NCBI GenBank assembly: GCA_965215265.1
Contig: OZ244048.1
Location: 1,504,001-1,568,000, forward strand
Length of the DNA stretch: 64,000 bases
Direction of reading: 5' to 3'
DNA from: Candidatus Poribacteria bacterium
GTDB lineage: Bacteria; Poribacteria; WGA-4E; WGA-3G
In this document: positions 923 to 51,628 of the stretch, one piece after another
How positions within the stretch are numbered: position 1 is the first letter of the stretch
Layout of the letters: each line of letters opens with the position of its first letter
Translations under genes and position numbers: made by a program
Notes under the pieces: generated by a model
Database searches by the model: none
Told to the model about the DNA's origin: nothing
Seen by the model: only the letters and a program-made list of their open reading frames with translations

Positions 923-971
923 GATAAACAAATCTCCTTATTGTGAGTTGTGGCAGTTTGATTGTGTAAAT

Positions 972-1607: not shown

Positions 1608-1640
1608 AAAAACCTCCATTTTGGTATTGTTTCTTACGGA

Positions 1641-2915: not shown

Positions 2916-2932
2916 GATTTATGTCCGCTGGT

Positions 2933-3721: not shown

Positions 3722-3855
3722 GCGATGCTTCTCCTATTCTTCGCTGTTTCAAGTAATAGATTGCACAGTTGCTTATTGTAAAATAGTGTCCATCCATTTG
3801 CGTTAGAATTATATGGAAAACCGCTAAAAAACACAAATGATTTTTTAGCACTGCG

Positions 3856-4752: not shown

Positions 4753-5226
4753 AATTTCCGGTTAACCACTGCTATCAGTTAGATTCAAGCTCTGTTTTAG
4801 CCCTTCAGTCAGTTCAAAGTCTCTGACAATTCTATTTCGTAGATGTATGCCGCGGCATTTGATACTCAACGCGAGCCTGAGGCCTCCTGCAAGCAGCTGC
4901 TGTGCAGTTCTGCTAAAAAGCATTGTGTCCTCCATTGCGATTAAGCATCTTGTGACATCTGCTCGTTAGAATATAGGATAGTTTACCAAATGTGAAGGAA
5001 ATTTGTCAACCCAAATTTTCGGTTTGGAAATGCCCGATAAAGGGCAGTGTGTTAAATGGATTGCCCGTTTTTGTGCAGATTCAAGGCAGAGTTTACGGAA
5101 TTCTCTCAAGAAATTCGCTTTGAGCCACTGCGTGTCGGTATATCCAGCGTTTCTCGGTATTGGCATATAAATTGCTCAAATTCCATAAAAATTCATATTG
5201 TAATGGATGTTCCAAGGGGGCATTTA

Positions 5227-33753: not shown

Positions 33754-33840
33754 GATGATTCATAGCATAGATAACCTCAGACGAGATTTACACAGGACTT
33801 CACAAAACATAAACCTTTTAGGTACGGAGATATACGAAAA
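33754..33840 (+). repeat. 87-bp bipartite intergenic repeat (two ~44-bp subunits)
   Basis: 84/87 identical to 36349-36435; ACGAGATTTAC box and GTACGGAGATATACGAAAA box 44 bp apart. Confidence 0.9.
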
Positions 33841-33865
33841 TAGATAGCTCTTCAGATCGATTAAA

Positions 33866-33894
33866 GGGAGTTGGGCTCCCACCCAAATCCCAAA
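33866..33894. repeat. Intergenic copy of the palindromic element
   Basis: Identical to 29198-29226. Confidence 0.85.
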
Positions 33895-33977
33895 ACCCCG
33901 GTTGTGAGCCCTTGCAAGCAAGGAGTATACAACGGGGTTCATAACAGGATGAATTCTTTACGGAGATATACAAAAAT

Positions 33978-36119
33978 ATGATTCAAAACATAAACGGCTC
34001 CGAAATTTGTGCACTGACCCTCTGCATGGTGCTTTTCTTAATGCCGCTGTCCACCTCGGCGCAAACTGTTAATATCCCCGACGCGAACCTGCGTGCTGCC
34101 ATTGCAGAGGCACTTGGCAAAGCACCAGCCGCAACGATGACCGCGGATGAGATGGAAACTTTGACGCGGTTAGAGGCACCTGACAAAGGGATTCTTAATT
34201 TGACAGGGCTGGAGACTGCGAGAAATCTGGAAGAGATAAACCTTGACAACAATTTGATAACGGATTTATCGCCACTCACGGAATCCACCAGACTGCGTGG
34301 CATAGAGTTGAGACAGAACACGATCACAGATTTATCACCACTTTCAGAATTAATCAGCTTGACAGGACTAGCACTTGACTCTAATTTCATACGTGACCTC
34401 TCACCGCTGGCCGGATTAATCAATTTGAGATGGTTAGGTATTTCGGATAATATCATCTCCGATTTATCCCCCCTAGAGGGTTTGATAAAACTAGAGTCGA
34501 TATGGATGAGCGAAAACCCGCCCGTAGACCTGTCGCCTCTAGAAGGATTAATGAGTTTGACACGTTTCCACTCTTGGGGTACCCCCATACTAAACCTGGC
34601 ACCGCTTGCGGAATTGCCAAAGCTGAGAAAGATAGATATTTGTGGTGCTGGAATATCAGATCTCTCCGCTTTGGAAGGGGTAACGGGCTTAAAAGAACTG
34701 TATCTCGTCGGTAACAATATCTCAGACATCTCCCCGTTGGCGAGTTTAACACAGTTGACACGGTTGAGTCTTAAACATAACGAGGTATCGGATGTAAGAC
34801 CGCTTGCATCTTTGAGTAACTTGACATGGATAGAGCTTGAGGACAATGCGATATCAGACTTTTCGTCCTTGGATGTGTTTCCTGAGAATGTCACTATCCT
34901 TCGGCGCGACAACCCGGGATTCACACGCGCTGCACCGAAAATAGAGGGGCCGTGGTTGTGGGTTATAGTGTCAACAGAAGGAATGTCTGGTTCAAGAGCA
35001 GCAGCTTCTGGAAGAGATTTTCTGGAACATAGCAGTCAGAGTGCTGTAACAGAATTAGAAATTGCGACTCAGGGGGCGACAGAAGGCGATACTGTGGGGA
35101 ATAAAGTCTGGACAATCGGCAGACTCAGGAGAAAAGGGGGCAATAACATCAATGAATTGGTGAACGCTACAGGCCTGGGAACAGATGATATAAATCATCA
35201 TGTGGCTTATGGTCTGGTTACCTTGGACGCACCACGGGAGCAGAATACAAAGATGTTTGTTGGAAGCAGTGATGCTGTTAAGGTCTGGCTCAACGGAGAG
35301 TTGGTTCACGATAACCCTATAGACCGGGATGCTCATGGGTATCAAGAAAATTTCCCTGTCACGTTAAAACAAGGAACAAATATTTTGTTGGTTGCTGTTT
35401 ATGAGGGCGAAGGCTGGTGGAGCGGCTTTTTTGGCTTTGATGCTAGTGCAGACTATACAGTGCTTCTACCGGATACGCGAGTTAGGAGAGGACAGCCGCG
35501 TGTAGCAGATGTGAACGTGGATGGAGAGGTGAGCATTCTGGATCTGATTCTGGTAGCACGCGACTTGGAAAGAAACAAACCGCTTAACTTGCGAACAGAT
35601 ATAGACGGCGATGGAAAAGTCACTATCTCAGACCTGGACCTTGTGGCACAAAGTATGGACTCAATAACAGGTGCTGCCGCCCCTACCTCACTTGCGATGA
35701 ACGCCTATATTTCTTCAACAATGATACGCACGTGGATAGCACGTGCGCAGCTTGAAAACGACGGCTCGCTTCTCTTTGAGCAAGGCATAGCGAACCTGCG
35801 GCAACTTTTAGGAGACATGCTGCCCGAAAAGACACGGCTTCTGGCGAACTATCCGAATCCATTTAACCCTGAAACCTGGATACCGTATCAACTTGCACAA
35901 GCAACCCGTGTGCAGATCCGTATCTATGCGTCAAGTGGCACGTTAGTGCGCACCTTGGATTTAGGGCATCGGGCTGCAGGACACTATGAGCAGAAAAGCC
36001 GTGCCGCCTATTGGGACGGCCGCAATCAACTCGGTGAAGCTGTAGCAAGTGGTGTCTATTTTTACACATTATCTACAGCCGATTTCACGGGTACCGGCAA
36101 AATGCTCATCAGAAAGTAA
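33978..36119 (+). CDS. Secreted internalin-like LRR protein with beta-sandwich, dockerin-like and FlgD/T9SS-like C-terminal domains
   Basis: IPDANLRAAI cap, L..N.ISDLSPL repeats, GSSDAVKVWLNG, DVNVDG and DIDGDG loops, NYPNPFNPETWIPYQL. Confidence 0.9.
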   Translation: MIQNINGSEICALTLCMVLFLMPLSTSAQTVNIPDANLRAAIAEALGKAPAATMTADEMETLTRLEAPDKGILNLTGLETARNLEEINLDNNLITDLSPLTESTRLRGIELRQNTITDLSPLSELISLTGLALDSNFIRDLSPLAGLINLRWLGISDNIISDLSPLEGLIKLESIWMSENPPVDLSPLEGLMSLTRFHSWGTPILNLAPLAELPKLRKIDICGAGISDLSALEGVTGLKELYLVGNNISDISPLASLTQLTRLSLKHNEVSDVRPLASLSNLTWIELEDNAISDFSSLDVFPENVTILRRDNPGFTRAAPKIEGPWLWVIVSTEGMSGSRAAASGRDFLEHSSQSAVTELEIATQGATEGDTVGNKVWTIGRLRRKGGNNINELVNATGLGTDDINHHVAYGLVTLDAPREQNTKMFVGSSDAVKVWLNGELVHDNPIDRDAHGYQENFPVTLKQGTNILLVAVYEGEGWWSGFFGFDASADYTVLLPDTRVRRGQPRVADVNVDGEVSILDLILVARDLERNKPLNLRTDIDGDGKVTISDLDLVAQSMDSITGAAAPTSLAMNAYISSTMIRTWIARAQLENDGSLLFEQGIANLRQLLGDMLPEKTRLLANYPNPFNPETWIPYQLAQATRVQIRIYASSGTLVRTLDLGHRAAGHYEQKSRAAYWDGRNQLGEAVASGVYFYTLSTADFTGTGKMLIRK

Positions 36120-36167
36120 TTTGTATATATCAGCACGTTACCCCCTGATGTGGCAGAATATCGTAGA

Positions 36168-36200
36168 TTGACATCCCGCCCGGAACCGGGCGGGAGTCAA
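36168..36200. repeat. GC-rich hairpin with CCGGAACCGG core
   Basis: TTGAC(A)TCCCGCCCGG-AA-CCGGGCGGGAGTCAA. Confidence 0.75.
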
Positions 36201-36240
36201 CCGAACTTACCAACCCACTGGGAGCCTTTTGATGTTCTTT

Positions 36241-36435
36241 ATTCATAACATAGAAAGCCTCGGACGAGATTTATGGAAGGGTTATCATAACATCAATCAC
36301 TGTTGGGCTCCTGTAGAGAAAAAAACGAAAAAAGGAGAGATACGAAAAGATGATTCATAGCATAGATAACCTCAGACGACATTTACACAGGACTTCACAA
36401 AACATAACCCTTTTAGGTACGGAGAGATACGAAAA
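36241..36435 (+). repeat. Tandem array of ~44-bp repeat subunits ending at the start codon
   Basis: Boxes at 36266, 36335, 36378 and 36422; last GGAGA lies just upstream of ATG 36437. Confidence 0.85.
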
Positions 36436-36436
36436 G

Positions 36437-39400
36437 ATGATGAAACAGATGAGAGCCTTCTACCTTCTTGTTGTTTTAACAGTTATCGCGCTAGGGGTTG
36501 GCACCGCTGATGCACAAAACCTCGCGCGACAGGCGTATGCTATCTTTGAACAAAACTGCCTGAACTGCCACGGCCCGCATGGTGCCTATACGGAGGAGCT
36601 CGTGATTGAATCCGCGCAAGGCTTGATTGATTCAGGCGTGGTGGTGCCGAGCAATGCTATCGGTTCGGAATTCTATCGCCGTTTGCTTGGCGATACGGAG
36701 AACGGTCTGCAGATGCCGTGGGGAAAACAGCCACTTTCGCCAGAAGCTATTGGAATAATCGGGGCCTGGATTTTAGCAGGTGCACCGAGCTGGGAGATTC
36801 AACACGATGTTGACTTCATTAGCACGGCTGATATGCTGAACACCATCCAAAGACATCTGGAGACGCTTTCCCCCTTCAACCGCCCCTTCGCGCGTTACTT
36901 TACGCTGACCCATCTCTATAACGCCGGCGAGCTGCCTGAGGCGCTGAGCGCCTACAAGATAGCCCTCTCTAAACTGATAAACAGCCTCTCGTGGGGGTTT
37001 GAGATTCACAATCCGGATGCCATAGGCCCGGCAGGGACGATATTCTACATAGATCTGCGGGACTATGAATGGGATACGAACGACGCATGGACATCGATAG
37101 AGCAGGTCTATCCGTATGCGATTGAGTTCGATGTTCAAACGCAAGCGCCGCTGCGTGACAAACTAATGCACCTCCGTGAAGAAATGGCTTGTGAGGTGCC
37201 GTATGTGTATGTCGATTGGTTCCTCGCGACGGCTGCCTTGCCGCCGCTCTATCACGATATCCTGGATCTGCCCCAAACCGACCGGGAGTTGGAGCGAAGG
37301 CTTGAGGTAGATGTGGCAAGGAATCTTCAGGCGGCACCGGGCGTGCGTGTGTGGCGTGCCGGGTTTAATGATTCCGGGGTGTCAAATCACAACCGCGTGG
37401 TTGAACGACACACGTCTCGGTATGGCGCATATTGGAAAAGCTACGACTTTGATGGGAGTGTAGGCACGCAGAATATCTTCACGCACCCATTGTCTTTCAG
37501 ACAGGATGGTGGTGAAGTCATCTTCAACTTGCCGAACGACTTGCAGGCATACTATATCTCGGATGAGTCTGGGAATAGGATAGATGTAGCGCCGACAACG
37601 ATAGTTTCTAATCCTGCGGCGAGAGATCCAGCAGTGCACAATGGGCTGTCGTGCATAGGGTGTCATACGGAAGGGATGAAGACGTTTGAGGATGGTGTGC
37701 GTTCTGTAGTACTCCAGGCGGGGAACCCACCGTTTGACAAAGAACAGGCGTTGCGTCTGTATGTTGAACAGGGCGAGATGGATGAGCTGGTGGCAGACGA
37801 TGCGAGGCGCTACAGTGAGGCGCTGAAGGAGACGGGTGGTGAACCTGGTGGGATTGAGCCTGTGCACCGTTTCTTTGAGGTGTATCAAGGTCCAGTTGAT
37901 GCGGCGTATGCTGCGGCATCGGTAGGCTTAAAAACTGGGGCGTTCCGGGAACAGATTCGTGCGAAGCCGAGTTTACAACGCCTGGGTTTGCTATCGCTAG
38001 TGGATGAGACGGGGAATGTGAAGCGTGATGCGTGGACGTCGCGTTTTCAGGAGATAGTGAGCGCGCTGAATTCCCCTGACGAGCCTGTTGTGACTCAGCG
38101 TGTGGTTGTGACACCGACGGGCACTTTTCACATCCCCGATGCGAACCTCCGTTCGGCAATTGCCGAAGCCCTCGGCAAAGCACCCGGTGCGGTGGTGACG
38201 GCGGAGGATATAGCAAGGTTAACGCGGCTTGATGCGGATGAAAGAGGCATCCGCGATTTGACAGGGCTTGAGGCGGCGACAAGACTGGAACGGATTGAAT
38301 GTCGTCATAATGCGATAGCCGACCTCTCCCCACTAGCCGGATTAACGCGTCTGAATAACATTAAACTGCGAGGGAACAGAATAACCGATGTATCGCCACT
38401 CGCCGACTTAATCAACGTGGACTGGCTGGGGCTTGAGGAGAACGCGATATCCGATTTATCTCCACTCAAAGGGTTAGTAAAATTGGACGGAATAGGGATT
38501 TCGGACAATCCTATATCGGATGTGTCGCCCCTTGCCAGTCTCATCAGCCTGGAAGGGATAAACGCTTGGCGTACCCATATTAACGACTTTTCCGTTTTGG
38601 CGAAGTTACCAAAGCTGGAGTGGATAGAATTTGGCGACAACAGAGCTATATCCGCATTGCCGTCTTTGAATGGATTAAAAGCGTTGAAACGACTGGAAAT
38701 CAATAACTGCAGCATCTCAGACCTCTCCGGGTTGGCGGAATTACAGCAACTGGAGTGGTTAACATTAGTTAATAACTTGATATCGGATGTGTCGCCATTA
38801 AGAGAGCTAAAAGACTTGAAACATCTGAATCTTGATGCTAACGTTATATCAGACGTGTCGCCGCTTGCAAAACTAACGCGGTTGGAAGTGCTGTACCTTG
38901 AGAACAACGTCATATCGGACACATCGCCGCTTGCAGGGTTAAACAACTTAGAACGGTTGGACCTTCGCAACAATGCGATACTCGACTTTTCGTCTTTAGA
39001 AGCATTACCTGATAAGACATTTATCCGGATGGACGGCAATCCGGGTTTCCCTTCGGGCGGTCCGAAAATAACAGGCCCCTGGTTATGGGCGATAGTACCG
39101 GGAATACGTCTTGATGACAACACAGATTTTCTGGCACGAGCAACGGGTGGTGCAGCGACAGAACTAAAGGTGGCTACCAACGGTGCAAAGGAAGGAAAGG
39201 CTGTGGGAGACAGCGTCTGGACACTTCACAAGCTGGCAGCTAGCGGTGGTAATAACATCAACCGAATGACAGATTCCCTTGGATGGGGGACAGGTGCAGA
39301 GATATATAACCATATCGTCTACGGTTCGGTTGTCTTGGATTCCCCGCATACACAAGAGACAACGATGCTGGTGGGTAGCGATGATGCAGTCAAAGTCTGG

Positions 39401-40651: not shown

Positions 40652-40652
40652 A

Positions 40653-40978
40653 TTTTTCGTCTACAGGAGCCCAATGACGCTCTATGTTTTTTAAAAACTT
40701 GTGCCTGTGGTGGTGCCCACCCGCCCTTTTCCAGTCTCTTCTTTCAGGAGAGAGGAGTTGGGCGGGTGGGCACCAAAAATCTCGTCTGAGCCTCTTTATG
40801 CTATGCCCAAGGAATCTCCGACGAGATTTACACACGAGCTATCAATAGCATAAGCGTTGATGGTACGGAGATATACAAAAAAGCGATGTTTAGATTCAAT
40901 ACATCAGGAGGCTCTGGCGAGATTTATACAGTAATTTACAAAACATAAACCTTTATGGTACGGAGATATACAAAAAAA
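40653..40978. repeat. Composite repeat region: inverted and tandem ~44-bp subunits plus a 16-bp inverted repeat
   Basis: Minus-strand subunits at 40653-40690 and 40777-40800; plus-strand boxes at 40823, 40868, 40919, 40963; TGGTGCCCACCCGCCC (40711) / GGGCGGGTGGGCACCA (40760). Confidence 0.85.
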
Positions 40979-42550
40979 ATGAATGAAAAAAAAAGTGACA
41001 ATCTTAAACTTCTTTACGGAATTATCATCGCTATTGTTGCAGGTGCGCTTGTTGGGGGAGGGTTCCCAGGGGTAGCGGTGCATACGACGATACTCGGTGA
41101 AATTTTCTTAAACCTACTAAAAATGATAGTGATTCCATTGGTGATCTTCTCCATGATTACCGGTATCACGAATTTAGGCGACATTCGCCATATCGGTTCT
41201 ATCGGTGGTAGGACCGTGCTGTACTATATGGCAACCACGGGGCTCTCCGTGCTGGTGGGTATCCTTCTCGTCAACATTCTGCTGCCCGGCAAAGGCCTCT
41301 CGAAAGGTGAAGAGCATCCGGATTTGAATTATACGCTGAGCGGCGACATGTTGCAGAACGTCACATTAGCGGCTGAATTCAGTAGAAGTTATAACGACAA
41401 GTATGTCATCACCCTCACTGACCAGGGTGTCCGCGGTGAGTTAGGATCCATGTCGGGTACCACTGTCACCGTAAAATCATGGACACTACTGGATCCTGCT
41501 GCCAGATATGTGAGTACAGACAGTGGTGAACGTTTATTGTTCCTCGACGGGAAACCGGCCGAGATCCAACTTAACGCTAGTGGGCAAGGCGTTGACATCG
41601 GGCTTCCTATTGCTGGCAAAATACAAGACAAAAAAGAGCGGGATATGCTCAGCACCCTCAAGGAGGTGTTCCTCGGCAATCTGGAGACTGGAAAAGTGGG
41701 GATGATACCCGAAAATGTATTCAAGGCAATGGCTAATATGGATATTCTCCCCTTAATCTTTTTCTCAATACTTATCGGGGCCGCGCTTTCAGTACTCGGG
41801 GAGCCGGGGAAGCCTGTGATAGCGATGATTTCGGGGCTCAATGATGCCGTGATGCAGCTCGTTCACTGGATTATGTTTGTTGCCCCGGTCGGTATTTTCG
41901 GTCTCATTGCCGGCCGCATCGGAGAGGCAGATGGGTTTGTCGGTTTCTGGCCCGAACTCGTCGCCGTTGGAAAGTATAGTTTTACTGTACTACTAGGCCT
42001 CTCAATTCATGGAGCAATTGTCTTACCCGTAATACTCTTGCTGGTTGGTCGGAGAAATCCGTTAGATTATGTCAAGGGGATGGCAACGGCGCTCTTGAAT
42101 GCATTTTCAACCGCTTCTTCCAGTGCTACCTTGCCCCTCACGATGGAGGGAGTAGAGGAGGAGAACGGTATCTCAAATCGTACTTCGAGTTTTGTGCTGC
42201 CCTTGGGCGCCACAATTAACATGGACGGTACCGCATTATATGAAGCCATTGCAGTCATGTTCATTGCGCAGGTGTACGCGATAACGATGGAACCAGCGCA
42301 GCAGCTTATTGTTGTGCTGACTGCCACGCTTGCGGCGATTGGTGCAGCAGGAATCCCGGAGGCAGGCCTCGTCACAATGGTGATTGTGCTTCGTGCTGTC
42401 GATTTGCCGATTGAGGGAATTACCTTGATTCTCTCCGTGGATTGGTTGTTAGATCGGTTCCGGACGACTGTGAATGTTTGGGGCGATAGCATCGGGGCCG
42501 GTGTCATAGAGACATACGAACTGAAGGATTCTGTGGCAGAGAGTACTTAG
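40979..42550 (+). CDS. Dicarboxylate/amino acid:cation symporter (GltP/DAACS)
   Basis: FLNLLKMIVIPL, AFSTASSSATLP, LGATINMDGTALY, DRFRTTVNVWGD; likely start 40979. Confidence 0.93.
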   Translation: MNEKKSDNLKLLYGIIIAIVAGALVGGGFPGVAVHTTILGEIFLNLLKMIVIPLVIFSMITGITNLGDIRHIGSIGGRTVLYYMATTGLSVLVGILLVNILLPGKGLSKGEEHPDLNYTLSGDMLQNVTLAAEFSRSYNDKYVITLTDQGVRGELGSMSGTTVTVKSWTLLDPAARYVSTDSGERLLFLDGKPAEIQLNASGQGVDIGLPIAGKIQDKKERDMLSTLKEVFLGNLETGKVGMIPENVFKAMANMDILPLIFFSILIGAALSVLGEPGKPVIAMISGLNDAVMQLVHWIMFVAPVGIFGLIAGRIGEADGFVGFWPELVAVGKYSFTVLLGLSIHGAIVLPVILLLVGRRNPLDYVKGMATALLNAFSTASSSATLPLTMEGVEEENGISNRTSSFVLPLGATINMDGTALYEAIAVMFIAQVYAITMEPAQQLIVVLTATLAAIGAAGIPEAGLVTMVIVLRAVDLPIEGITLILSVDWLLDRFRTTVNVWGDSIGAGVIETYELKDSVAEST

Positions 42551-42676
42551 ATTCAAAACATAGAAAGGCTCAGGCGAGATTTATGCGAGGTTGCATATCA
42601 CATCTGTTGTGTTGTGCTGCAGTAGACGAAAGACGGTACGGAGATATACGAAAAGATGGTACCAAGATATACAAAA
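42551..42676 (+). repeat. Repeat-family copy between the two transporter genes
   Basis: CAGGCGAGATTTA at 42571, GTAGACGAAA at 42622, GTACGGAGATATACGAAAAG-ATG at 42636-42658. Confidence 0.8.
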
Positions 42677-44803
42677 AATCAACAGCATTCTCCTATTACA
42701 GGGACGACGATCCTCGCCATCATCACTGTTGTACTGGCGGCGGCTTGGATCGCGTTCGCCTATTATAAAGGCAGCGGCCCCATTCTGTTGTTGCATCCTA
42801 TTGTCGCTATCTTTCTGATCGTTCTGCTCATCCGGGTTTACCGGTGGATCGAGATAAAAATCATAGTCGGGTTAGAATTGCTGATGATCAGTTTGTGGCT
42901 TTTTGTCACCCTGCTTGATGTACTGATGCCGTTCCTACTCGGCTTCGGGTTTGCATATCTCTTCCGATTTCTCTTTCGTGCAATCCCCTTCTCGAAATCG
43001 TATCAACGTTGGATTGCGACTGTGCTAATCGTCTTTACTTGTGGGTTGCTTCTGTTTTGGACCGGGCGGCAGATAGGCCGTCAGGCTAGACAGATGAGCA
43101 ACGGCTTGCAAAGATTTTATTATGAATCGGTGCTACCCATTGTAGTTGGTGAAACGTTGGAGACAATGGCAGTTGATCGGATAGACGCAACATCCCCGGA
43201 TGCTGCCCCCCCGGATGTCTATCTCGGTACCAATCACGGTATCTATCGCCTCAATCCGAACCGGTCTGGAATCACAAATGGCGATATCGTCGGCAAACGG
43301 ATACAGACAATTGCTTTAACGGATAAGTTTATCTATGCGGGGACACCAGATGGACTTTATAGACGAGCGAAGACAGATGAGAAGGCAGTTTGGAAGAAAA
43401 TCGGTTTTGCAGATACGTCCGTTCAAACGCTCTGCACTATAGAAAGAGCTTCCACGCCAGAAATCTATGTCGGCACTTCTAAAGGGCTTTATAAAGGTGA
43501 TGGCGAAACGTGGTTACCCGTTGCTCCGGAGACATTTGGTGACATATCCATCGTGAGCGTCGTGAAAAGTCGACACAGCCTTTATGTCGCGGCCCGTCCA
43601 CCCAAATCCGCGTCGGCAGCTGCGGGCCCGCCCACCCGGAACCGGGCGGGCGGGCCCGCAGCACTGGATGGGACAAGGTTGTGGGTTCTGGAATTTTCAA
43701 GCATGATGTGGTCTGATTTCCCATCAAATGGGCTCCCGACAGTTAATATCCTCGCATCCGATGCCGATGCTATGTCGCCATTGCTGTCTGCAGGGACACC
43801 TACTGGCATCTATCAATTTAATGCGGAGCAGAATCTGTGGGAGGCCCGTGCAGGGGCAGAACACCTACCAGCATCTATTTCGCTATTAGGGTACTTAGGA
43901 GTTGGGCACCCGCCCAAATCCACCACCGAGCCGGCGCCCCAAGTTGACCGTCGTCAGTTCCTTTATGCCGGGGATAAGACTGTCATCCGGAGCAACGTTA
44001 CGGAGCAGTGGCCCCTGTTGGTTGAACAACATGTCGGTCTTCTTAACACTTATAAGGATTTGGATTTGGGAGGGGGGGAGCTCGGATTGCAGGTGAAGTC
44101 CTACCTGACGCAAAAGATACCGAGCCTTGCAGAAAGTACAGGCGACATTTTCAAGTGGAGTTCAGAGTTCGCCGGCTCGCTAGCCTTTAAGTTCGGCGGT
44201 TTTCTGGCTACAGTGACTTTCTCTTTCATTGTGTTTGTCTACGCCATTCAATCATTTGAGACCTATTTTCGCAATTTGACGCAGCTCATTCCGCATCCAC
44301 ACCGCGATGATGTCAGAACCTACCTGCGCGAGGTTGATGAGAACATGCAACAGTTTCTCAAAGGTCAATTCACAGTAATAGCGATCGTTTCTGTCGTCTC
44401 CTGCACGGCGTATTGGCTAATTGGGGTACCGTTCGCCCTGCTCATCGGCTTGTTGGCTGGACTCTGCAATGCGATTCCGACGTTCGGCCCGTTTATCGGC
44501 GGCGCGTTCGCGTTCACAGCGATGCTGATGGGATTGGCAGCAGGCGATTTCAGCATCATCGGGTTCCTGATACGTAGCGGTTTTGTGTTGGTGGCCATCC
44601 TCGGTATCCAGATGCTTGACAACTCGCTCATCTCGCCAAAAGTGATGAGCCGAGCCGTGGATGTCGATCCGTTGCTTATTATGTTTGGTGTCATTGTCGG
44701 TGGCGCTTTTCTCGGTTTTTGGGGTGTATTGCTAGCGATTCCGATTCTTGTTGTGATAAAATCCGTTATTCATGTCTGGCACACGCACGGAGTGGCAGGA
44801 TAG
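42656..44803 (+). CDS. AI-2E (PerM) family transporter with an inserted beta-propeller-like domain
   Basis: N-terminal TMs with PFLLGFGFAYL; YLGT..GIY, YAGT.DGLY, YVGTSKGLY repeats; C-terminal FLKGQ, NAIPTFGP, DNSLISPKVM, GFWGVLLAIP. Confidence 0.85.
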   Translation: MVPRYTKNQQHSPITGTTILAIITVVLAAAWIAFAYYKGSGPILLLHPIVAIFLIVLLIRVYRWIEIKIIVGLELLMISLWLFVTLLDVLMPFLLGFGFAYLFRFLFRAIPFSKSYQRWIATVLIVFTCGLLLFWTGRQIGRQARQMSNGLQRFYYESVLPIVVGETLETMAVDRIDATSPDAAPPDVYLGTNHGIYRLNPNRSGITNGDIVGKRIQTIALTDKFIYAGTPDGLYRRAKTDEKAVWKKIGFADTSVQTLCTIERASTPEIYVGTSKGLYKGDGETWLPVAPETFGDISIVSVVKSRHSLYVAARPPKSASAAAGPPTRNRAGGPAALDGTRLWVLEFSSMMWSDFPSNGLPTVNILASDADAMSPLLSAGTPTGIYQFNAEQNLWEARAGAEHLPASISLLGYLGVGHPPKSTTEPAPQVDRRQFLYAGDKTVIRSNVTEQWPLLVEQHVGLLNTYKDLDLGGGELGLQVKSYLTQKIPSLAESTGDIFKWSSEFAGSLAFKFGGFLATVTFSFIVFVYAIQSFETYFRNLTQLIPHPHRDDVRTYLREVDENMQQFLKGQFTVIAIVSVVSCTAYWLIGVPFALLIGLLAGLCNAIPTFGPFIGGAFAFTAMLMGLAAGDFSIIGFLIRSGFVLVAILGIQMLDNSLISPKVMSRAVDVDPLLIMFGVIVGGAFLGFWGVLLAIPILVVIKSVIHVWHTHGVAG
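43619..43662. repeat. 44-bp in-frame palindrome inside coding sequence
   Basis: 21-bp arms with one mismatch around AA; encodes AAGPPTRNRAGGPAA. Confidence 0.85.
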
Positions 44804-44883
44804 GTTCTTTGTCTGTCCTGAAGGACAGACACCCATTGGGAATACCGAACTTGCCAACCCGCTGGAAGCCGCTTTATGCTACG

Positions 44884-44964
44884 CTATGCCTAAGAAATCT
44901 CCGACGAGATTTACACACGAGCCCTCAAAAGCATAGACGTTGACGGTACGGAGATATACGAAAA
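44884..44964 (+). repeat. Repeat-family copy upstream of der
   Basis: Closely similar to 40801-40880; boxes at 44906 and 44951; ATG at 44969. Confidence 0.88.
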
Positions 44965-44968
44965 CGTT

Positions 44969-46345
44969 ATGAAACCAGAAGCAAATCAAAATTACCAACG
45001 ACCTTCTTCTCTGCCAGTTGTGGCGATTATCGGCAGGCCAAATGTCGGCAAATCCTCTCTCTTTAATCGCATCACAGCCGTTGCCAGCGGTGCAAAAACG
45101 GCGAAAAAAAAGGCCGTCGTTCACGATACTGCTGGGGTGACACGCGATAGAAACTACGCAGCTGCTGAATGGGCGGAACAGCGTTTTACGATTGTAGACA
45201 CCGGCGGCTTAGATACCGATGCGGACGATCGGCTGATTCATAACGTTCAGCTGCAGGTAGATACGGCGTTAGCCGAAGCGTCTCTAATCCTCTTCGTTGT
45301 TGATGCCCGGACCGGTGTGATGCCTCACGATAGCACCATTGCAGACAAACTCCGTGCTGCCAATAAACCGATTTTCCTCGTTGTCAATAAGGTAGATAGC
45401 GAAAGATTGCGTAACGATGCAGCGGAATTTTATGCCCTCGGATTGGGAGAGCCCCTTTTAATCTCGTGTATCCAGAACGAAGGTATTTTGTCGCTGCTGG
45501 ATGAAGTGATAGAGGAACTGCCAGAACCCGAGGCAGATGAGATAGGCGAAGCGGCGCGCTTGATAAAAATCGCGATGGTCGGAAGACCCAACGTTGGAAA
45601 ATCATCACTCATCAACAGGTTACTCGGTGAAGATAGGATGATTGTTGACGACCGGCCCGGAACGACACGGGATGCGGTTAATATCCGCGTGAGCCATGAT
45701 AATATCCCATTTGAAATTGTTGACACGGCAGGCATGCGGCGCAAATCTGCCATAAACGATGAATTGGAATCGGAAACCGTGCAGCGTGCCATCCACAGTA
45801 TCCGTCAAAGCGATATTGCAGTGCTCGTTTTAGATTGCACGCTTCCTGTTGCGCAACAAGATAAGACGATTGCCAATTTTATCCAGCGACACGGCAAAGC
45901 TTCCATACTCGCAATAAATAAATGGGATTTGATTGAAAAGGACAACACCACGCATGGTGCGTTTATGGAAATGCTCGCGATGCAGTTACCAGGGTTCGAG
46001 TATGTGCCCCGCGTCTTCGTTTCCGCCGTCACAGGACAGCGCGTGACTACGATTCTTGACGCTGCGCTTCAGGTATATCGCGAGTATTGTACGCGCATCC
46101 CGACACCGACGCTGAACCGGATGCTAGTAGAGTGGCGTAATGCCTATCCGCCGCCGCGTGTCAAAGGCGTCCGACCCGCACTCAAATATATCACACAAAT
46201 TGAGACAAAACCGCCGACGTTCCTGATTTTCGGACGGAATCTCCATCGAATCCGCCCACCATATCAGGCATACCTCGTTAACAACCTGCGCAAAGAATTT
46301 GGGTTCCACGGCACACCCATACGCATCTATTACCGACATTCATAA
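44969..46345 (+). CDS. der: Ribosome biogenesis GTPase Der (EngA)
   Basis: Two G domains (GRPNVGKSS twice; DTGG, DTAG; NKVD, NKWD) and KH-like C-terminus ...FGFHGTPIRI. Confidence 0.97.
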   Translation: MKPEANQNYQRPSSLPVVAIIGRPNVGKSSLFNRITAVASGAKTAKKKAVVHDTAGVTRDRNYAAAEWAEQRFTIVDTGGLDTDADDRLIHNVQLQVDTALAEASLILFVVDARTGVMPHDSTIADKLRAANKPIFLVVNKVDSERLRNDAAEFYALGLGEPLLISCIQNEGILSLLDEVIEELPEPEADEIGEAARLIKIAMVGRPNVGKSSLINRLLGEDRMIVDDRPGTTRDAVNIRVSHDNIPFEIVDTAGMRRKSAINDELESETVQRAIHSIRQSDIAVLVLDCTLPVAQQDKTIANFIQRHGKASILAINKWDLIEKDNTTHGAFMEMLAMQLPGFEYVPRVFVSAVTGQRVTTILDAALQVYREYCTRIPTPTLNRMLVEWRNAYPPPRVKGVRPALKYITQIETKPPTFLIFGRNLHRIRPPYQAYLVNNLRKEFGFHGTPIRIYYRHS

Positions 46346-46362
46346 CGCGAAAGGAGGGAGTC

Positions 46363-47337
46363 TTGTCCAGATTCAAAGTTTTTATCACACGTCCCATTCC
46401 GCAGCAGATTGTTGACGCGATGGCATCGGAATGCGAAATAGATATGTGGCACACGAGTGCCATCCTACCGCCCATTGCTGAAAAAATCGGCCCGCTTGAT
46501 GGTTTGATGACTTACGGGCATGAACCGGTTTCCGCTGAAATGATTAACACCGCTCCAAATCTGAAGGCGATTTCCGTCGTTGGAGTCGGCTACGACCATG
46601 TGGATGTGGCAGCATGCAGAGAACGCGGGATTGCCCTCGGGCACACGCCCGGCATCCTCAGCGATACGACTGCTGACATGACGATGGCGCTCTTGCTCGC
46701 TGCTTCGCGTAACATTGTGCCGGCTTACCGACATGTCCAATTGAACAAAAGGTGGAGCTACTACGATCCGAACATTCTCTGGGGTTACGACGTACATCAC
46801 GCCACGTTGGGCATCGTCGGGATGGGGCGCATCGGGTACGCCGTCGCAAAGCGGGCCTCCGCATTTGACATGCGCGTCCTCTATTACAAACGCAGCCGCA
46901 GGCATGATTGGGAAGAAGCGCTCGGTATTGAATACGCCCAACTTGAACAACTCCTCCAAACCGCAGATTTCGTGACACTCCACGTGCCGTTGACAGATGA
47001 AACGTACCATCTTATCGGAGCAAAGGAATTCAAACTCATGAAACCGACCGCCATTTTAGTCAATATCGCAAGGGGACCTGTGGTCGACCACGATGCGTTA
47101 TATAGCGCCTTGAGCGATGGGGAGATTGCAGGAGCTGCGCTTGACGTAACGGAACCGGAGCCTATTAACACAGATCATCCGCTTCTCACCCTGGATAACC
47201 TGCTCATCGCACCGCATCTCGGGAGCGCAACAATCCAGACACGCACCAAGATGGCGACTATGGCAATGGAAAACTTACTTGCTGGACTAAAAGGGGAACA
47301 GCTGCCTTACGCAGTGCTTCAACCAAAGCCTGCATAA
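46363..47337 (+). CDS. D-2-hydroxyacid dehydrogenase (glyoxylate reductase/D-glycerate dehydrogenase type)
   Basis: GIVGMGRIG, LHVPLTDET, NIARGPVVD, LDVTEPEP, PHLGSAT. Confidence 0.92.
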   Translation: MSRFKVFITRPIPQQIVDAMASECEIDMWHTSAILPPIAEKIGPLDGLMTYGHEPVSAEMINTAPNLKAISVVGVGYDHVDVAACRERGIALGHTPGILSDTTADMTMALLLAASRNIVPAYRHVQLNKRWSYYDPNILWGYDVHHATLGIVGMGRIGYAVAKRASAFDMRVLYYKRSRRHDWEEALGIEYAQLEQLLQTADFVTLHVPLTDETYHLIGAKEFKLMKPTAILVNIARGPVVDHDALYSALSDGEIAGAALDVTEPEPINTDHPLLTLDNLLIAPHLGSATIQTRTKMATMAMENLLAGLKGEQLPYAVLQPKPA

Positions 47338-47478
47338 AGCCCTCCGATTCGTTTTGCTTTTTTGAGCAATTGAAGGTTTCGTAAACTTACCTATCCTGCC
47401 ACTCGTCTGAGCGGTTTAGGGTTTTATTTCAGAGGGTTTTGCTTTAGATAATGATATTGGGTTTTGTCTGCCCGATTT

Positions 47479-47745
47479 TTAGAATATCGAAGACATCCCC
47501 ATTGACGCGAAAACTCCCACCCATCCAACTCCTGCGATTGTAGCGTTTACCAGCTCCACACTCTTAGGAACAATAATAGACTTTCGCTTGAAACGTCCGA
47601 ACCCCTGCCGCATTAAACCATTGTTCCGCTCAATGTGATGTGTTTCAGTTTTCGTCTGAATCAATACATCTGCTCGGATAAGACTCTTATACGGTTGCCA
47701 ATCATCGGTGTAATACACCTTCACTTGCCAGGGCACCAAGCGTTT
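47479..47745 (-). mobile_element. IS1-family transposase (InsB) remnant
   Basis: YTDDWQPY...TKTETHHIERNN..MR...RFKRKS; N-terminus missing. Confidence 0.7.
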
Positions 47746-47794
47746 GAGAAGTTGTGATCTATTTTTGCTTAAGGATACCTTATCTGTTTTTCGG

Positions 47795-47850
47795 TGTCAA
47801 TAAAAATCCATCTGATTTTTATTGACAGGTTTTTCAACATCTGTTATACT
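47795..47850 (+). promoter_or_regulatory. Strong sigma70 promoter with a 14-bp perfect inverted repeat over the -35
   Basis: TTGACA(47822)-17 bp-TATACT(47845) with extended TG; TGTCAATAAAAATC-catct-GATTTTTATTGACA. Confidence 0.7.
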
Positions 47851-47936
47851 TTAACTAATTATGAAATAAGTGAGTGTGATACCCCAAGGATTAAAGAGCC
47901 CAGAGTCGTATCATTATTTTACGAAAAACTCTCTTA

Positions 47937-48017
47937 TTTCAAAACCTCGAAGGGCTCCGACGAGATTTACACACGAGTACTCACGACATCAGCGATGACG
48001 GGACTGAAATATACGAA
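47937..48017 (+). repeat. Degenerate repeat-family copy abutting the helicase ATG
   Basis: CTCCGACGAGATTTACACACGAG, then GAAATATACGAA-ATG; boxes at 47962 and 48006. Confidence 0.8.
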
Positions 48018-51000
48018 ATGCCTAGAATTTTTGATAATATAGACCAGCAACTGCTACCCGAGCTTCAACAGACACTTGAAACCGCCACGCATGCAGATTT
48101 TTGTGTCGGCTATTTTAACCTGCGAGGGTGGAGAAAGGTCAATGCTTACATTCAGAAGTGGGGCGGTGGTGAAGGTGCATGTTGCCGCCTGTTAGTCGGG
48201 ATGCAACGATTGCCGCAAGAAGAGCTCCGCGAGGCCAGACGGCTCGATCAGCAGAGCCATGGCATAGACAATCAGAGCGCGAGTCGTCTCAAACGAAGAT
48301 TAGCAGAAGAGTTCCGAGAACAGTTGACCGTCGGTTTTCCGACGCGTGAGGACGAAAACGGTTTGCGTCAATTGGCACAGCAGATTCGTGACGAGAAGGT
48401 GAAGGTAAAACTATTTCTCCGACATCCGCTTCACGCGAAACTCTATCTGCTCTACCGATCTGACCCGATTACGCCAATTGTCGGCTACCTCGGCAGTAGC
48501 AACCTAACGCTTGCCGGCCTGTCCCAGCAAGGAGAACTCAACGTTGATGTTGTTGACTTAGATGCTTGCGAGAAACTAGCGGAGTGGTTTGAAGCACGTT
48601 GGGAAGACTGGTGGTGTATTGATATTTCGGATGAATTGGTCGAAATTATTGAACAGAGCTGGGCGCGTGAAGAGTTCATTCCGCCCTATCACATTTACAT
48701 TAAAATGGCGTATCATCTCTCACAGGAAGCGCGCGCCGGATTGACTGAATTTCAGATTCCGCGCGAATTTCAAGGCAAACTCTTTGAATTTCAGACCGCT
48801 GCTGTTAAAATCGCAGCGCATCACCTGAATAGACGCGGCGGGGTGCTCATCGGCGATGTTGTTGGGCTCGGCAAAACGCTCATGGGAACGGCCCTCGCGC
48901 GCATACAAGAAGATGATTACGGACTTGAAACCTTAATTATCTGTCCGAAAAACCTAGTCAAGATGTGGGAAAATTATCGATACGAGTATCACCTGCGTGC
49001 GAGGGTGCTCTCCATTAGCCGAGTCATCAATGAGTTGCCCAACCTTCGCCGCTATCGTCTCGTCATGATTGACGAAAGCCATAACCTCAGAAACCGTGAG
49101 GGCAAACGCTACAAGGCTATTCAGGAATATATCCACGAAAATGAGAGCAAGGTTATCCTCCTCTCTGCAACGCCCTACAACAAAACCTATCTGGATCTCT
49201 CTAATCAGCTCCGCCTTTTTGTAGACGAAACTGAAGACCTGGGCATCCGTCCAGAGCAATATATCAAGAGGTTAGGTGGTGAAAGCGAGTTTATTCGCAA
49301 ACACCAAAGTGGGGCCCGGACGCTAAAAGCGTTTGAACAGAGCGAGTACATTGACGATTGGCGTGAACTGATGCGCCGGTATCTTGTCCGCCGCACGCGC
49401 AGTTTCATCATGGAGAACTACGCCGAAACCGAGCCGGAGACAGAACGCAAGTTCCTCGCCTTTGCCGATGGGACGTGCTCCTACTTCCCGATACGCGTTC
49501 CAAAAACAGTCCAGTTCTGCATTGATGAAGCAGACCCGGACGATACCTACGCCCAGTTATATTCTGCTTATGTTGTGAACATCATTAGCAATCTCAAACT
49601 GGCGCGATACGGACTCGCCAATTACATTCTTGATACGCCCACGGAACCGCCGACACAAGCAGAGCAGCAACAGTTGAATAACCTCTCCCGTGCTGGGCAA
49701 CGGCTGATCGGCTTCAGCCGGACGAACCTTTTCAAACGTCTTGAAAGTAGCGGGCAGGTGTTCATCCAGTCCGTAGCTCGGCACATCCTACGAAACTATA
49801 TTTTCCTCCACGCCATCGAGAACGACCAGCCGCTGCCAATTGGCGGACAAAACGCTGAAATGCTCGATCCTCGTTTCTACGATGGAGATACTGACGATGT
49901 TAATTTTACTTCAGATCCGTTTGATGAAGACGATGATGAGACACAAATTGATAGGACTCACGCGCAACCCACGTCCAATACAGTTGATTCCTTCAAACAG
50001 CGCGCCGCAGATGTCTATCAACGGTACACGACAGAATATAAGAGCAGGTTCAAGTGGATGCGTCCTGATCTTTTCCGGGGCTCGCTTCACGAAGAGCTGA
50101 CTGAAGACGCACACGCGCTACTAGACATCTTGCAACGGTATGGCGACTGGGATACCGAGAAAGACGCAAAACTCAACGCGCTTGAAAACCTCTTAACCCA
50201 GGTACACCCGGAAGATAAAGTATTGGTTTTCACCCAGTTTGCGGATACGGTGAAGTATTTGACAGATACCCTCTCAGCGCGCGGACTAACACAAATCGCT
50301 GCGGTAACCGGCGATTCGGCAGATCCCACCGCTTTGGCACACCGCTTTAGTCCTATTAGCAACAATAGTAAGGCGGAAGATGAGCTGCGAGTACTGATTA
50401 GCACTGATGTGCTGAGTGAAGGACAGAATTTACAAGATTGTTCAATTGTTGTCAACTACGACTTACCGTGGGCAATTATACGGTTGGTTCAACGCGCCGG
50501 ACGCGTCGACCGGATAGGTCAACACGCTGAAAATATTTTGTGCTATTCGTTTTTACCTGCAGACGGAGTGGAACGCATTATTAACTTGCGCGGTCGTGTG
50601 CGTACACGGTTGCTTGAAAACGCTAAAGTTGTGGGAGCCGACGAGGCATTTTTTGAAGATGACGGGGTACGTGGTGAAGAGGCAATTCTTAACCTTTACC
50701 ACGAGCAGGCAGGCTTGCTTGATGATGAACAGGACAACGATGTCGATCTTGCCTCGTACGCTTATCAGATTTGGAAAAACGCCATTACACAAGATGCATC
50801 CTTAGAACGAATCGTTTCTGAACTCCCCGCTGTCGTCTATTCAACCCGGTCGCATGAGCCAACGGAACCGGAGCCGGAAGGCGCGCTGGTTTACATCCGG
50901 ATAGGGCAGGAAAACGACGCGCTGGCATGGATAGCCCGAGATGGACAGAGCGTCACGGAATCGCAGTTCGCAATTCTCCAAGCCGCAGCGTGTGAACCAG

Positions 51001-51407
51001 ATACAAAGGCACTGTCACCGCTTGAAGAACACCACCACCTCGTGCAAGAAGCCGCTCGACGGATGGTTTCTGAAGAACGTCCCGTTGGCGGACAACTCGG
51101 ACAACCGTCGGGGGCACGTTTCCGTACCTACAAACGCCTGAAGCAATACGCCAACAACGTCCAAAATACCTTATTTTCTACACACGAACTTAGAAGCGCC
51201 ATTGGTGATATCTATCGCTACCCTCTCCGTCAAAACGCAACGGATACGCTCAATCGCCAACTCCGTAGCGGTATTTCAGATGATGACTTGGTGGCACTCG
51301 TAACCGATTTGTGGAACGAAGACCGGCTCTGTCTAATTGAAGAAGAAAAAGAGAGGCAAGAATCACAGATTGTCTGTTCATTGGGGCTTAGTGCAAGTGA
51401 GGCATGA
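48018..51407 (+). CDS. PLD-nuclease + SNF2-like helicase (restriction subunit)
   Basis: VGYFNL.GW, LHAKLYL...GSSNLT PLD motif; DVVGLGKT, IDESHN, LSATP, STDVLSEGQNLQ, QRAGRVDR. Confidence 0.88.
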   Translation: MPRIFDNIDQQLLPELQQTLETATHADFCVGYFNLRGWRKVNAYIQKWGGGEGACCRLLVGMQRLPQEELREARRLDQQSHGIDNQSASRLKRRLAEEFREQLTVGFPTREDENGLRQLAQQIRDEKVKVKLFLRHPLHAKLYLLYRSDPITPIVGYLGSSNLTLAGLSQQGELNVDVVDLDACEKLAEWFEARWEDWWCIDISDELVEIIEQSWAREEFIPPYHIYIKMAYHLSQEARAGLTEFQIPREFQGKLFEFQTAAVKIAAHHLNRRGGVLIGDVVGLGKTLMGTALARIQEDDYGLETLIICPKNLVKMWENYRYEYHLRARVLSISRVINELPNLRRYRLVMIDESHNLRNREGKRYKAIQEYIHENESKVILLSATPYNKTYLDLSNQLRLFVDETEDLGIRPEQYIKRLGGESEFIRKHQSGARTLKAFEQSEYIDDWRELMRRYLVRRTRSFIMENYAETEPETERKFLAFADGTCSYFPIRVPKTVQFCIDEADPDDTYAQLYSAYVVNIISNLKLARYGLANYILDTPTEPPTQAEQQQLNNLSRAGQRLIGFSRTNLFKRLESSGQVFIQSVARHILRNYIFLHAIENDQPLPIGGQNAEMLDPRFYDGDTDDVNFTSDPFDEDDDETQIDRTHAQPTSNTVDSFKQRAADVYQRYTTEYKSRFKWMRPDLFRGSLHEELTEDAHALLDILQRYGDWDTEKDAKLNALENLLTQVHPEDKVLVFTQFADTVKYLTDTLSARGLTQIAAVTGDSADPTALAHRFSPISNNSKAEDELRVLISTDVLSEGQNLQDCSIVVNYDLPWAIIRLVQRAGRVDRIGQHAENILCYSFLPADGVERIINLRGRVRTRLLENAKVVGADEAFFEDDGVRGEEAILNLYHEQAGLLDDEQDNDVDLASYAYQIWKNAITQDASLERIVSELPAVVYSTRSHEPTEPEPEGALVYIRIGQENDALAWIARDGQSVTESQFAILQAAACEPDTKALSPLEEHHHLVQEAARRMVSEERPVGGQLGQPSGARFRTYKRLKQYANNVQNTLFSTHELRSAIGDIYRYPLRQNATDTLNRQLRSGISDDDLVALVTDLWNEDRLCLIEEEKERQESQIVCSLGLSASEA

Positions 51408-51442
51408 ACCTTCGGAGCCGTTTATGTTTAGACTTCAAAAGA

Positions 51443-51615
51443 CTATACCTAAGCAATCTTCAACGAGATTTTTTAGTATATTGCAGCACAACAAAGGCTG
51501 CTGCTATGCTAAGTCCTTTACAAATCTCGCTCTTTTTCGTATATCTCCGTACCATCAACGCTTAGGTATTGATTAACAATACATCAGGCGTTGTGGGGCT
51601 CCAGTATACAAAAAA
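51443..51615. repeat. Mixed-orientation repeat-family cluster between helicase and MTase
   Basis: Plus ACGAGATTT at 51463; minus-strand TAAGCGTTGATGGTACGGAGATATACGAAAAA at 51533-51564; plus GGGCTCCAGTATACAAAAAA at 51596. Confidence 0.8.
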
Positions 51616-51628
51616 CAGGGAAACACCG

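Follow-up and report, generated by a model that had tools for sequence, protein, structure and literature searches.

The question raised by this locus in a Candidatus Poribacteria genome is whether a short repeat that recurs between unrelated genes serves as a control device for its neighbours or spreads as DNA with little function for the host. The locus is contained in a stretch of 64,000 nucleotides (positions 1504001-1568000 of a single 4.83-Mb contig, 48% G+C), which we refer to as the window and whose section between 33.7 and 51.6 kb harbours the repeats. A first-pass annotation had described them as one degenerate element found in seven intergenic gaps, which was proposed to be mobile or recombinogenic, to mark gene-cassette junctions or to form a phased protein-binding array, and to have been co-opted as a module for translation initiation. 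Our analysis favours, with a probability of roughly 0.68, an assignment to high-copy, lineage-restricted small non-coding interspersed repeats, which would constitute selfish or near-neutral DNA and not a dedicated control device.

The occurrence of a single element in all seven gaps is well reproduced. A hidden Markov model (HMM) built from copies of the genome finds 12 matches in the window, all located within 33755-51619 and in the named gaps, and the sole element-free gap of this span is the 17-nt junction between der and the adjacent dehydrogenase gene. No match is found in the first 33 kb, where the first-pass annotation had also seen no clear copy, or in the last 12 kb of the window. 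The box ACGAGATTTAC is present eight times with up to one mismatch, compared to 1.04 expected occurrences, a count that none of 100 shuffles reaches, and the box GTACGGAGATATAC ten times with up to two mismatches, compared to 0.24 expected. De novo repeat finding recovers the same element as the families D5, D9, D12 and D19, with lengths of 54-92 nt.

The window samples a much larger population. In the whole genome (4.83 Mb), a second HMM identifies 801 copies at E<1e-3 (854 matches at E<=0.01 and 716 at E<1e-5), which corresponds to about one copy per 6 kb, and no match in the reversed genome that served as control; the first HMM had found 596 copies. The 12-mers ACGGAGATATAC and GACGAGATTTAC occur 221 and 196 times, respectively. 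Copies are about 87-95 bp long and share a conserved core of about 87 nt extending approximately from TTAGAGTCAA to ATATACAAAAA. As had been recognized, the two halves of the element are degenerate versions of one subunit: two direct copies of a subunit of about 43 nt, with a period of about 42-44 nt, make up the unit, which contains an internal box A (CTCNGACGAGATTTAC) and, at the 3' side, an A-rich box B (in one sub-family ACGGAGATATACRAAAA), and in which CAAAACATAA...GGCTCCGACGAGATTTACA recurs about 43 nt further on as CAAAACATAAG...GGTACGGAGATATACA. The regular spacing of the boxes is thus real but was put slightly too high at 44-45 bp, since the start-to-start distance from box A to the GTACGG... 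segment measures 41-42 nt (33781 to 33822, 36376 to 36417, 40821 to 40863 and 44904 to 44946). Whereas the median identity between all pairs of copies is 64%, 22 columns, comprising box A and the ATAC.AA of box B, are conserved to at least 93%. As for box B, among 739 copies with a complete 3' end, 259 carry GGAGA and 129 TGAAA, with TCCTG, TGCAG and others making up the rest. Units of 61 nt, reaching from box A to box B, are repeated in tandem, box B is also found behind different modules, one of them a hairpin of 33 nt, and the run of A at the 3' end varies between 4 and 8 nt. Of 408 distinct full copies, 65 have a counterpart of at least 97% identity and 36 are without any relative above 80%, so that the family holds both old and young members.

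None of the features that would mark the element as a gene or a structured RNA was detected. A coding unit is ruled out: of 330 ungapped copies, no more than 147 are free of stops in the best frame (45-54 in shuffles). Folding of 150 copies on both strands with RNAalifold yields neither a consensus structure nor long-range pairing, and the left variable patch shows no covariation with the right end. Five of six sense-strand copies in the window fold no better than shuffled sequences, the remaining one (z -2.08) representing a sub-type in which box A is embedded in a 7-bp palindrome; over 120 copies the mean z is -0.47, with 10% below -2, and the T at the deciding column that is required for the extended palindrome is present in 70 of 408 copies. 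In a search of the 64 kb against Rfam, no match reaches the gathering threshold, and at E<=1 only sub-threshold matches were obtained on a separate hairpin at 40696-40787. RNAalifold, the comparison with shuffles and Rfam together rule out an RNA gene and a consensus hairpin. Terminal inverted repeats are absent, as there is no complementarity between the ends TTAGAGTCAA... and ...ATATACAAAAA. A distant blastn search of a plasmid collection gave no match, and in one text search on intergenic repeats in Poribacteria no paper had such elements as the subject of its title or abstract; by Rfam and this literature search, the family is undescribed. Contigs from four DNA sequencing runs of four studies that cover the span break and pile up at the repeats, which confirms them as real and high-copy in those samples, and which explains why short-read assemblies of this symbiont are disrupted at every gap.

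That the element can enter new sites is suggested by positions that are found in filled and empty form. In a sister genome of the same genus (G001), five copies of one IS200/IS605-type insertion sequence align end to end, four of which contain a 93-nt copy of the repeat in the spacer between tnpA and tnpB while the fifth is empty, with a boundary ambiguity of 1 nt. In the genome investigated here, three paralogous pairs differ by the presence of one copy of 87-95 nt. A target duplication is not evident, as the flanks of 135 isolated full copies are no more identical than shuffled pairings and the ambiguity at filled and empty sites amounts to 0-1 nt.

The comparison with relatives points in the same direction. 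All relatives of the der gene of the window carry the label Candidatus Poribacteria, and the order SDF symporter, AI-2E transporter, der, 2-hydroxyacid dehydrogenase is kept in 34 of the 50 loci of relatives listed. Whether the orthologous gaps are empty, as a mobile element would predict, had been raised in the first-pass annotation, and this is what we find: 60 der loci from relatives are free of HMM matches at E<=10, and so, at E<0.01, are the 47 kb of the sister genome that are syntenic with the window. The gap between the AI-2E transporter gene and der, which here consists of 165 nt of repeats, is in relatives either 8 nt long, replaced by an overlap, or occupied by a terminator-like hairpin followed by GAGGAGG at usual spacing. 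The sister genome has a degenerate remnant of box A just before der (E 0.22), an indication that this particular insertion is older than the divergence of the two species. The box A 12-mer CTCYGRCGAGAT is found 375 times here, 240 times in a genome of another genus (G004) and 46 times in the sister genome, whereas none of the remaining 148 Poribacteria genomes sampled has more than 19 occurrences and a backward control gives 0-4, so that the box A family is expanded in three of 151 genomes. An exact match to the box B 15-mer is present at 163 places here and absent from 30 relatives. The sister genome and G004 have units of their own, with lengths of 69 and 76 nt, respectively, which share box A and the A-rich tail and are devoid of GGAG, and of which the HMM matches only the left halves. 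Specificity to the species therefore applies to the GGAG form and does not extend to the whole family. The copy number, the filled and empty sites, the empty orthologous gaps and the narrow expansion of box A together bear out the proposal of a lineage-specific element that is capable of insertion.

A part in recombination receives limited support. In the sister genome, aspS and the SDF gene are direct neighbours separated by about 140 nt, whereas here two genes encoding leucine-rich repeat (LRR) proteins with LRR, dockerin and FlgD-Ig domains (33978-40651) intervene, and the gaps on both sides of and between them bear the element. Their absence from this position in the sister genome points to a lineage-specific insertion or duplication that is bounded by repeat-filled gaps. 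The second LRR gene has a paralogue near 2.76 Mb that shares its repeat-derived leader, indicating that some copies travel with duplicated genes. These observations leave some room for the suggested recombinogenic character without turning the element into a cassette site. The proposed gene-cassette junction, or integron attC site, is not supported, as gene order is kept in the above-mentioned 34 of 50 listed loci, no attC-like structure or fold is found and no integrase is encoded among the ten open reading frames (ORFs) scanned between 31.7 and 53.9 kb.

The placement of copies relative to genes, for which we relied on crude calls of the longest ORFs, is uneven. While 553 of 801 copies lie wholly between ORF calls, their density per kb decreases from 1.21 in co-directional to 0.90 in convergent and 0.37 in divergent gaps. 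Co-directional gaps contain 362 copies in sense and 197 in antisense orientation (35% antisense), convergent gaps 74 and divergent gaps 53 copies. The sense bias resides in two sub-families (143 sense versus 44 antisense for GGAGA and 69 versus 18 for TGAAA) and is not found in the rest (126 versus 113). A replication-strand bias was dismissed as explanation: the GC skew offers no usable origin or terminus, and orientation tracks genes and not the unreliable assignment of leading and lagging strands. Copies are also clustered, with 350 of 3666 gaps occupied and 129 adjacent pairs in which both gaps are occupied, compared to 33 expected. The longest run comprises seven occupied gaps, compared to a mean of 3.1 after shuffling, placing the run in the window among the longest of the genome, and 22 of 97 bins of 50 kb are without copies.

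The first-pass annotation had assigned to the element the role of supplying ribosome-binding sites. The 3' end of the 16S rRNA contains CCUCC, and at 3471 crude starts without a nearby element the first G of the native GGAG is most often located at -10 (range about -13 to -9). At element-associated starts this peak is displaced to -16, leaving 12 nt between GGAG and ATG compared to about 6 nt natively. In the window, GGAG indeed precedes all five start codons for which it had been described (33978, 36437, 40979, 42656 and 44969), although not immediately, since the distances from the first G to the A of the ATG are 16, 16, 17, 16 and 19 nt and thus beyond the native position. In the genome, an ORF of at least 100 residues begins at an offset of 9-22 nt in 89 of 739 copies with complete 3' end. 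For the GGAGA sub-family, an ORF start at an offset of 14-22 is found in 46 of 259 copies, and 65 of 293 copies with a GGAG-type box B abut a start within 12-24 nt. Since copies without GGAG adjoin starts nearly as often (start-adjacent fractions of 32/221 for GGAGA, 13/112 for TGAAA and 19/295 for the rest), the adjacency belongs to the 3' end of the element and not to the GGAG. The long spacing, the minority of copies concerned and the adjacency of GGAG-less copies in combination indicate that the supply of ribosome-binding sites is a by-product, and the notion of a translation-initiation module is partly supported. The N-terminus of der aligns with its relatives and contains no alternative ATG before the P-loop, so that its translation must start behind the repeat. 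In case of the AI-2E transporter, the annotated start at 42656 and the first seven codons (MVPRYTK) are part of a second box B copy, and its true N-terminus is uncertain, since most relatives align only from residue 34. The 3' end of the repeat would act as a serviceable leader that is A-rich, weakly folded and equipped with a distant GGAG. Annotators should be aware that several start codons in this region are located inside or directly against repeat copies.

These results are best accommodated by small interspersed repeats that would enter intergenic DNA as discrete blocks without target duplication, may amplify locally in tandem via the 61-nt unit, are joined to other repeat modules in mosaics and form clusters in neighbouring gaps. 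Copies probably survive best where they are least harmful, which would be in sense orientation between co-directional genes, where the transcript would read as an A-rich stretch folding little better than shuffled sequence. A copy landing directly before a start codon would presumably replace the native leader, and genes hit in this way, including der, would start translation from the 3' end of the repeat, either with GGAG at long spacing or with the A-rich tail. Small interspersed repeats are common in bacteria, and it is the form of the element that is unusual while the phenomenon is ordinary; yet a density of about one copy per 6 kb is reached in a genome without the usual small-transposon enzymes, and the locus would provide an example of selfish DNA replacing native translation leaders in a conserved, operon-like string of genes.

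Several observations weigh against this interpretation. The gene calls being crude, all counts of genomic context carry error. Insertion would follow from the filled and empty sites, and the contigs of the four runs, which break at repeats and have joints that reflect other copies, give no reading of insertion polymorphism between strains or of its absence. The strong sense bias of two sub-families could reflect a host function, and so could the persistence of box A across three genomes from two genera in which the remainder of the unit has diverged. The start-adjacency shows a sharp peak at a single offset (exactly 16 in 41 of 739 copies), which is not fully explained. Finally, a mobilising enzyme was not found among the families checked, which include Y1, TnpB, IS110, YhgA-like and RVT_1; 22 of the 24 YhgA-like genes of the genome are without an element within -1.5 to +2.5 kb.

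The sense bias and the positioning in front of start codons (65 of 293 GGAG-type box B copies ending 12-24 nt upstream, with the sharp peak at 16) are what would be anticipated of a dedicated cis-regulatory module, a promoter, a leader with ribosome-binding site or both, placing many genes under one control, for which the REP2 repeats described in PMC3184786 offer a precedent. An adjoining mosaic module at 44851-44880 even reads TTGCCA-18-TATGCT. We nevertheless consider this explanation unlikely, as divergent gaps, in which promoters are located, hold the fewest copies per kb (0.37 compared to 1.21). The core between box A and box B contains none of the 20 sigma-70-like sites found at 33-52 kb, a total equal to the expectation from shuffling (19.3), although the genus uses canonical promoters, as exemplified by the TTGACA-17-TATAAT upstream of tnpA in the insertion sequence of the sister genome; a promoter of the REP2 type was discarded on these two grounds. 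In addition, more than a third of the copies between co-directional genes (35%) are antisense, others form tandem arrays or face the 3' ends of genes, the GGAG is placed 6 nt beyond its native spacing and the downstream genes are unrelated. A site used by the host at the level of DNA would relate differently to the same data: boxes A and B, spaced by about four helical turns, could serve as half sites in direct repeat within a phased array for a nucleoid-type or recombination protein. BIMEs, as an example, bind IHF and gyrase. The 22 columns that are conserved to at least 93% against a median identity of 64%, the presence of box A in the otherwise different 69- and 76-nt units of the two other genomes, the construction of the halves as direct copies of one subunit and the regional clustering are all compatible with this proposal. 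We regard it as improbable as well, because no binding protein can be named and 148 of 151 Poribacteria genomes are without the expansion, which leaves no conserved host need evident. Detection by HMM favours copies that keep the boxes, and a comparison of closely similar copies for purifying selection on box A was set aside as circular, its columns having been picked for conservation.

Other explanations concern the way in which the element moves. A derivative of IS200/IS605 elements, similar to PATEs or to REPs with their RAYT, that is transferred as single-stranded DNA by a Y1 HUH transposase, would account for the absence of inverted ends and target duplications, and the 7-bp palindrome around box A in one sub-type and the 34 Y1 and 108 TnpB matches in the sister genome (3 and 66 in G004) would fit. 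Still, such an origin is very unlikely: the genome in which copies are most numerous by a wide margin has no match to either family (for PF01797, two candidates were scored), and the co-occurring RAYT/Y1 transposase for which the first-pass annotation had advised a search was thus not found. The T that decides on the palindrome is found in only 70 of 408 copies, a consensus hairpin is absent, and the repeat in the insertion sequence of the sister genome is a passenger inside and not at its ends, lacking in one of five cases; an IS200/IS605-derived PATE is not supported. Retroposition via RNA, in the manner of SINEs, would be signalled by the A-rich 3' tail of variable length, by an excess of 5' truncation (about 241 complete-3' copies start at HMM position 20 or later, while about 41 complete-5' copies stop before position 90) and by the absence of target duplications, and the two genomes with the largest expansion have one RVT_1 gene each, with none in the sister genome. 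This possibility is highly remote, as in both genomes the reverse transcriptase is part of a diversity-generating retroelement cassette with FGE-sulfatase-fold targets and bAvd (contig 1416001-1426000, local positions 737-4944, in this genome; local positions 4384-7888 of its locus in G004), which removes the only reverse transcriptase as partner enzyme. The 61-nt tandem unit, together with alternative 5' modules, accounts for the apparent peak of truncations at HMM position 30-40, and the A-run has just 4-8 nt. Among the remaining families, IS110 has no match in any of the three genomes, and matches to IS91/Y2 are absent as well, a result that says nothing, as the control genomes are silent too. 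YhgA-like genes (Transposase_31) number 24 here, 7 in G004 and 0 in the sister genome; they were discounted as partner, being present in 10 copies in a genome with only four box A matches (G006), absent from the sister genome and not flanked by the element. The three genomes contrast sharply in their mobile elements: Y1 and TnpB matches are present in G001 and G004, whereas the genome investigated here has neither but harbours, in addition to about 800 small repeats, 24 YhgA-like genes. Among multi-copy ORF families, of which only the ten largest were annotated, no parent insertion sequence with the ends of the element was found. A bolder version of the preferred interpretation, which we consider rather doubtful, would see in the repeats a new class of non-autonomous element that is defined by the internal box A instead of its ends, is moved by an enzyme outside Y1, TnpB, IS110 and DDE, possibly via an RNA or single-strand intermediate, and carries a portable, unstructured, purine-rich leader that, having landed beside start codons, would have rewired the 5' leaders of about 65 genes including the essential der in one sponge symbiont.

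Compared with known families, the interspersed repeats of this genome resemble several and coincide with none. That the element had not been recognized as a REP, attC, CRISPR or insertion sequence end agrees, CRISPR apart, with the missing Rfam match and with the absent hallmarks of REPs, MITEs and attC sites. With the BIMEs and REP clusters of enterobacteria and pseudomonads it shares the high copy number, the intergenic location, the mosaics of short modules, the preference for co-directional and convergent gaps with scarcity in divergent ones and the expansion in certain lineages; it differs by the absence of a 20-40-nt palindrome and of a RAYT/Y1 gene, for which reasons membership was rejected, and by its organization as direct dimer of about 43 nt instead of inverted REP pairs. 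MITEs such as Correia/NEMIS and RUP are likewise small, non-coding, multi-copy insertions that are able to change the expression of neighbours, but in the Poribacteria repeat there are no terminal inverted repeats and no target-site duplications, and no parent insertion sequence with matching ends was found, so that it was not assigned to this group. In BOX elements of Streptococcus pneumoniae, the end modules pair. According to the parts of PMC3049150 and PMC3184786 that deal with them, BOX elements are, like our repeats, modular with a tandem module, intergenic, present in hundreds of copies, without own transposase and within transcripts; in the latter account they are described with predicted secondary structures, whereas the Poribacteria repeat is without a consensus fold. 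The MIRUs of Mycobacterium are presented in the relevant section of PMC3184786 as units of 40-100 bp that are intergenic in operons, have unit ORFs overlapping with neighbouring genes and occur at filled and empty sites. Judged by that section, the similarity extends to the size of units between operon genes, their tandem arrangement, the preferred direction of transcription, the filled and empty sites between relatives and the contact of the ends with neighbouring stop and start codons (the copy at 42542 overlaps the SDF stop codon and five copies abut an ATG). Tandem units running in gene direction are found as in MIRUs (61-nt units; 362 versus 197), but a conserved unit ORF and the tetranucleotide direct repeats at filled sites are absent here, and about 800 copies compare to about 40-50. 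Neisseria REP2 and Borrelia IR, as portrayed in the same article, have no inverted ends, are located directly upstream of unrelated genes and bring along a ribosome-binding sequence. Set against that portrayal, our repeats have neither a promoter consensus nor a pair of internal stem-loops, and only about one fifth of the GGAG-type box B copies is next to a start, with many copies being antisense or in tandem. As far as these descriptions go, the element behaves as a mixture of BIME, MIRU and REP2 that lacks a defining feature of each.

Within the window, the copies illustrate the full range of arrangements, with all elements on the plus strand unless indicated. The first gap contains a full element at 33755..33847 (box A 33781-33791, box B 33822-33840; nhmmer E 1.7e-19), which is not followed by a start codon, and a copy consisting of box B only (TTACGGAGATATACAAAAAT, 33958..33977) that abuts ATG 33978 of LRR gene 1. 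In the second gap, a degenerate element at 36235..36328 (E 2e-9) is succeeded by a GGAG-type box B (GGAGAGATACGAAAAG, about 36335-36350) that runs directly into a full element at 36350..36440, which is 97% identical to the copy at 33754 (D5) and whose box B abuts ATG 36437 of LRR gene 2. In front of the SDF symporter gene, a partial inverted box A on the minus strand (40777..40807, E 0.003) is placed head-to-head with the full element at 40791..40886 (E 1.9e-24), which represents the sub-type with the 7-bp palindrome AATCTC CGAC GAGATT around box A (fold z -2.08) and is in tandem with another full element at 40885..40978 (E 2.3e-22), the box B of which abuts ATG 40979. The next element begins over the SDF stop codon (42542..42655, E 7.2e-9), and its box B at 42636-42655 abuts ATG 42656; the second, GGAG-less box B (ATGGTACCAAGATATACAAAAAA, 42656..42680) encodes the first residues of the AI-2E transporter ORF. 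A full element at 44877..44967 (E 2.3e-21) precedes der, its GGAG being 19 nt from ATG 44969. In the full element of a GGAG-less sub-type (TGAAATATAC, 47933..48023, E 2.9e-21), the box TGAAATATACGAA abuts ATG 48018 of a PLD-SNF2 helicase gene, in line with the degenerate box that had been reported at this start. The last gap near 51.45 kb does contain copies as stated, although these are incomplete and for the greater part in minus orientation (51465-51529 minus, 51532-51575 minus and 51573-51619 plus), with two of them facing the 3' end of the helicase gene and not a start codon.

Other repeats and genes are found in the vicinity. The hairpin at 40696-40787 belongs to a different module, also present at 29198, 33866 and 43897, which forms a long, near-perfect hairpin (GTGGTGCCCACCCGCCC...GGGCGGGTGGGCACC) and is related to the 32-nt family D20; its sub-threshold Rfam matches are to potC (28.9 bits compared to a threshold of 44) and to miRNA models. 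An 86-residue remnant of an IS1 transposase (PF03400, E 1.6e-11) is encoded on the minus strand at 47479-47739, and beside it, at 47795-47850, an inverted repeat with a 14-bp stem and TTGACA-17-TATACT, the best match to a sigma-70 site in this region, are located upstream of the helicase gene. The latter and a following gene for a MmeI/Eco57I-like methyltransferase form a defence-type pair (48018-53887), and the methyltransferase ORF has two paralogues of at least 85% identity elsewhere in the genome. Coding repeats of the WD40 and dockerin-like type (D1-D3, D6-D8, D11) are found at 5400-7100 and 58400-60600, as is typical of the eukaryote-like repeat proteins of sponge symbionts.

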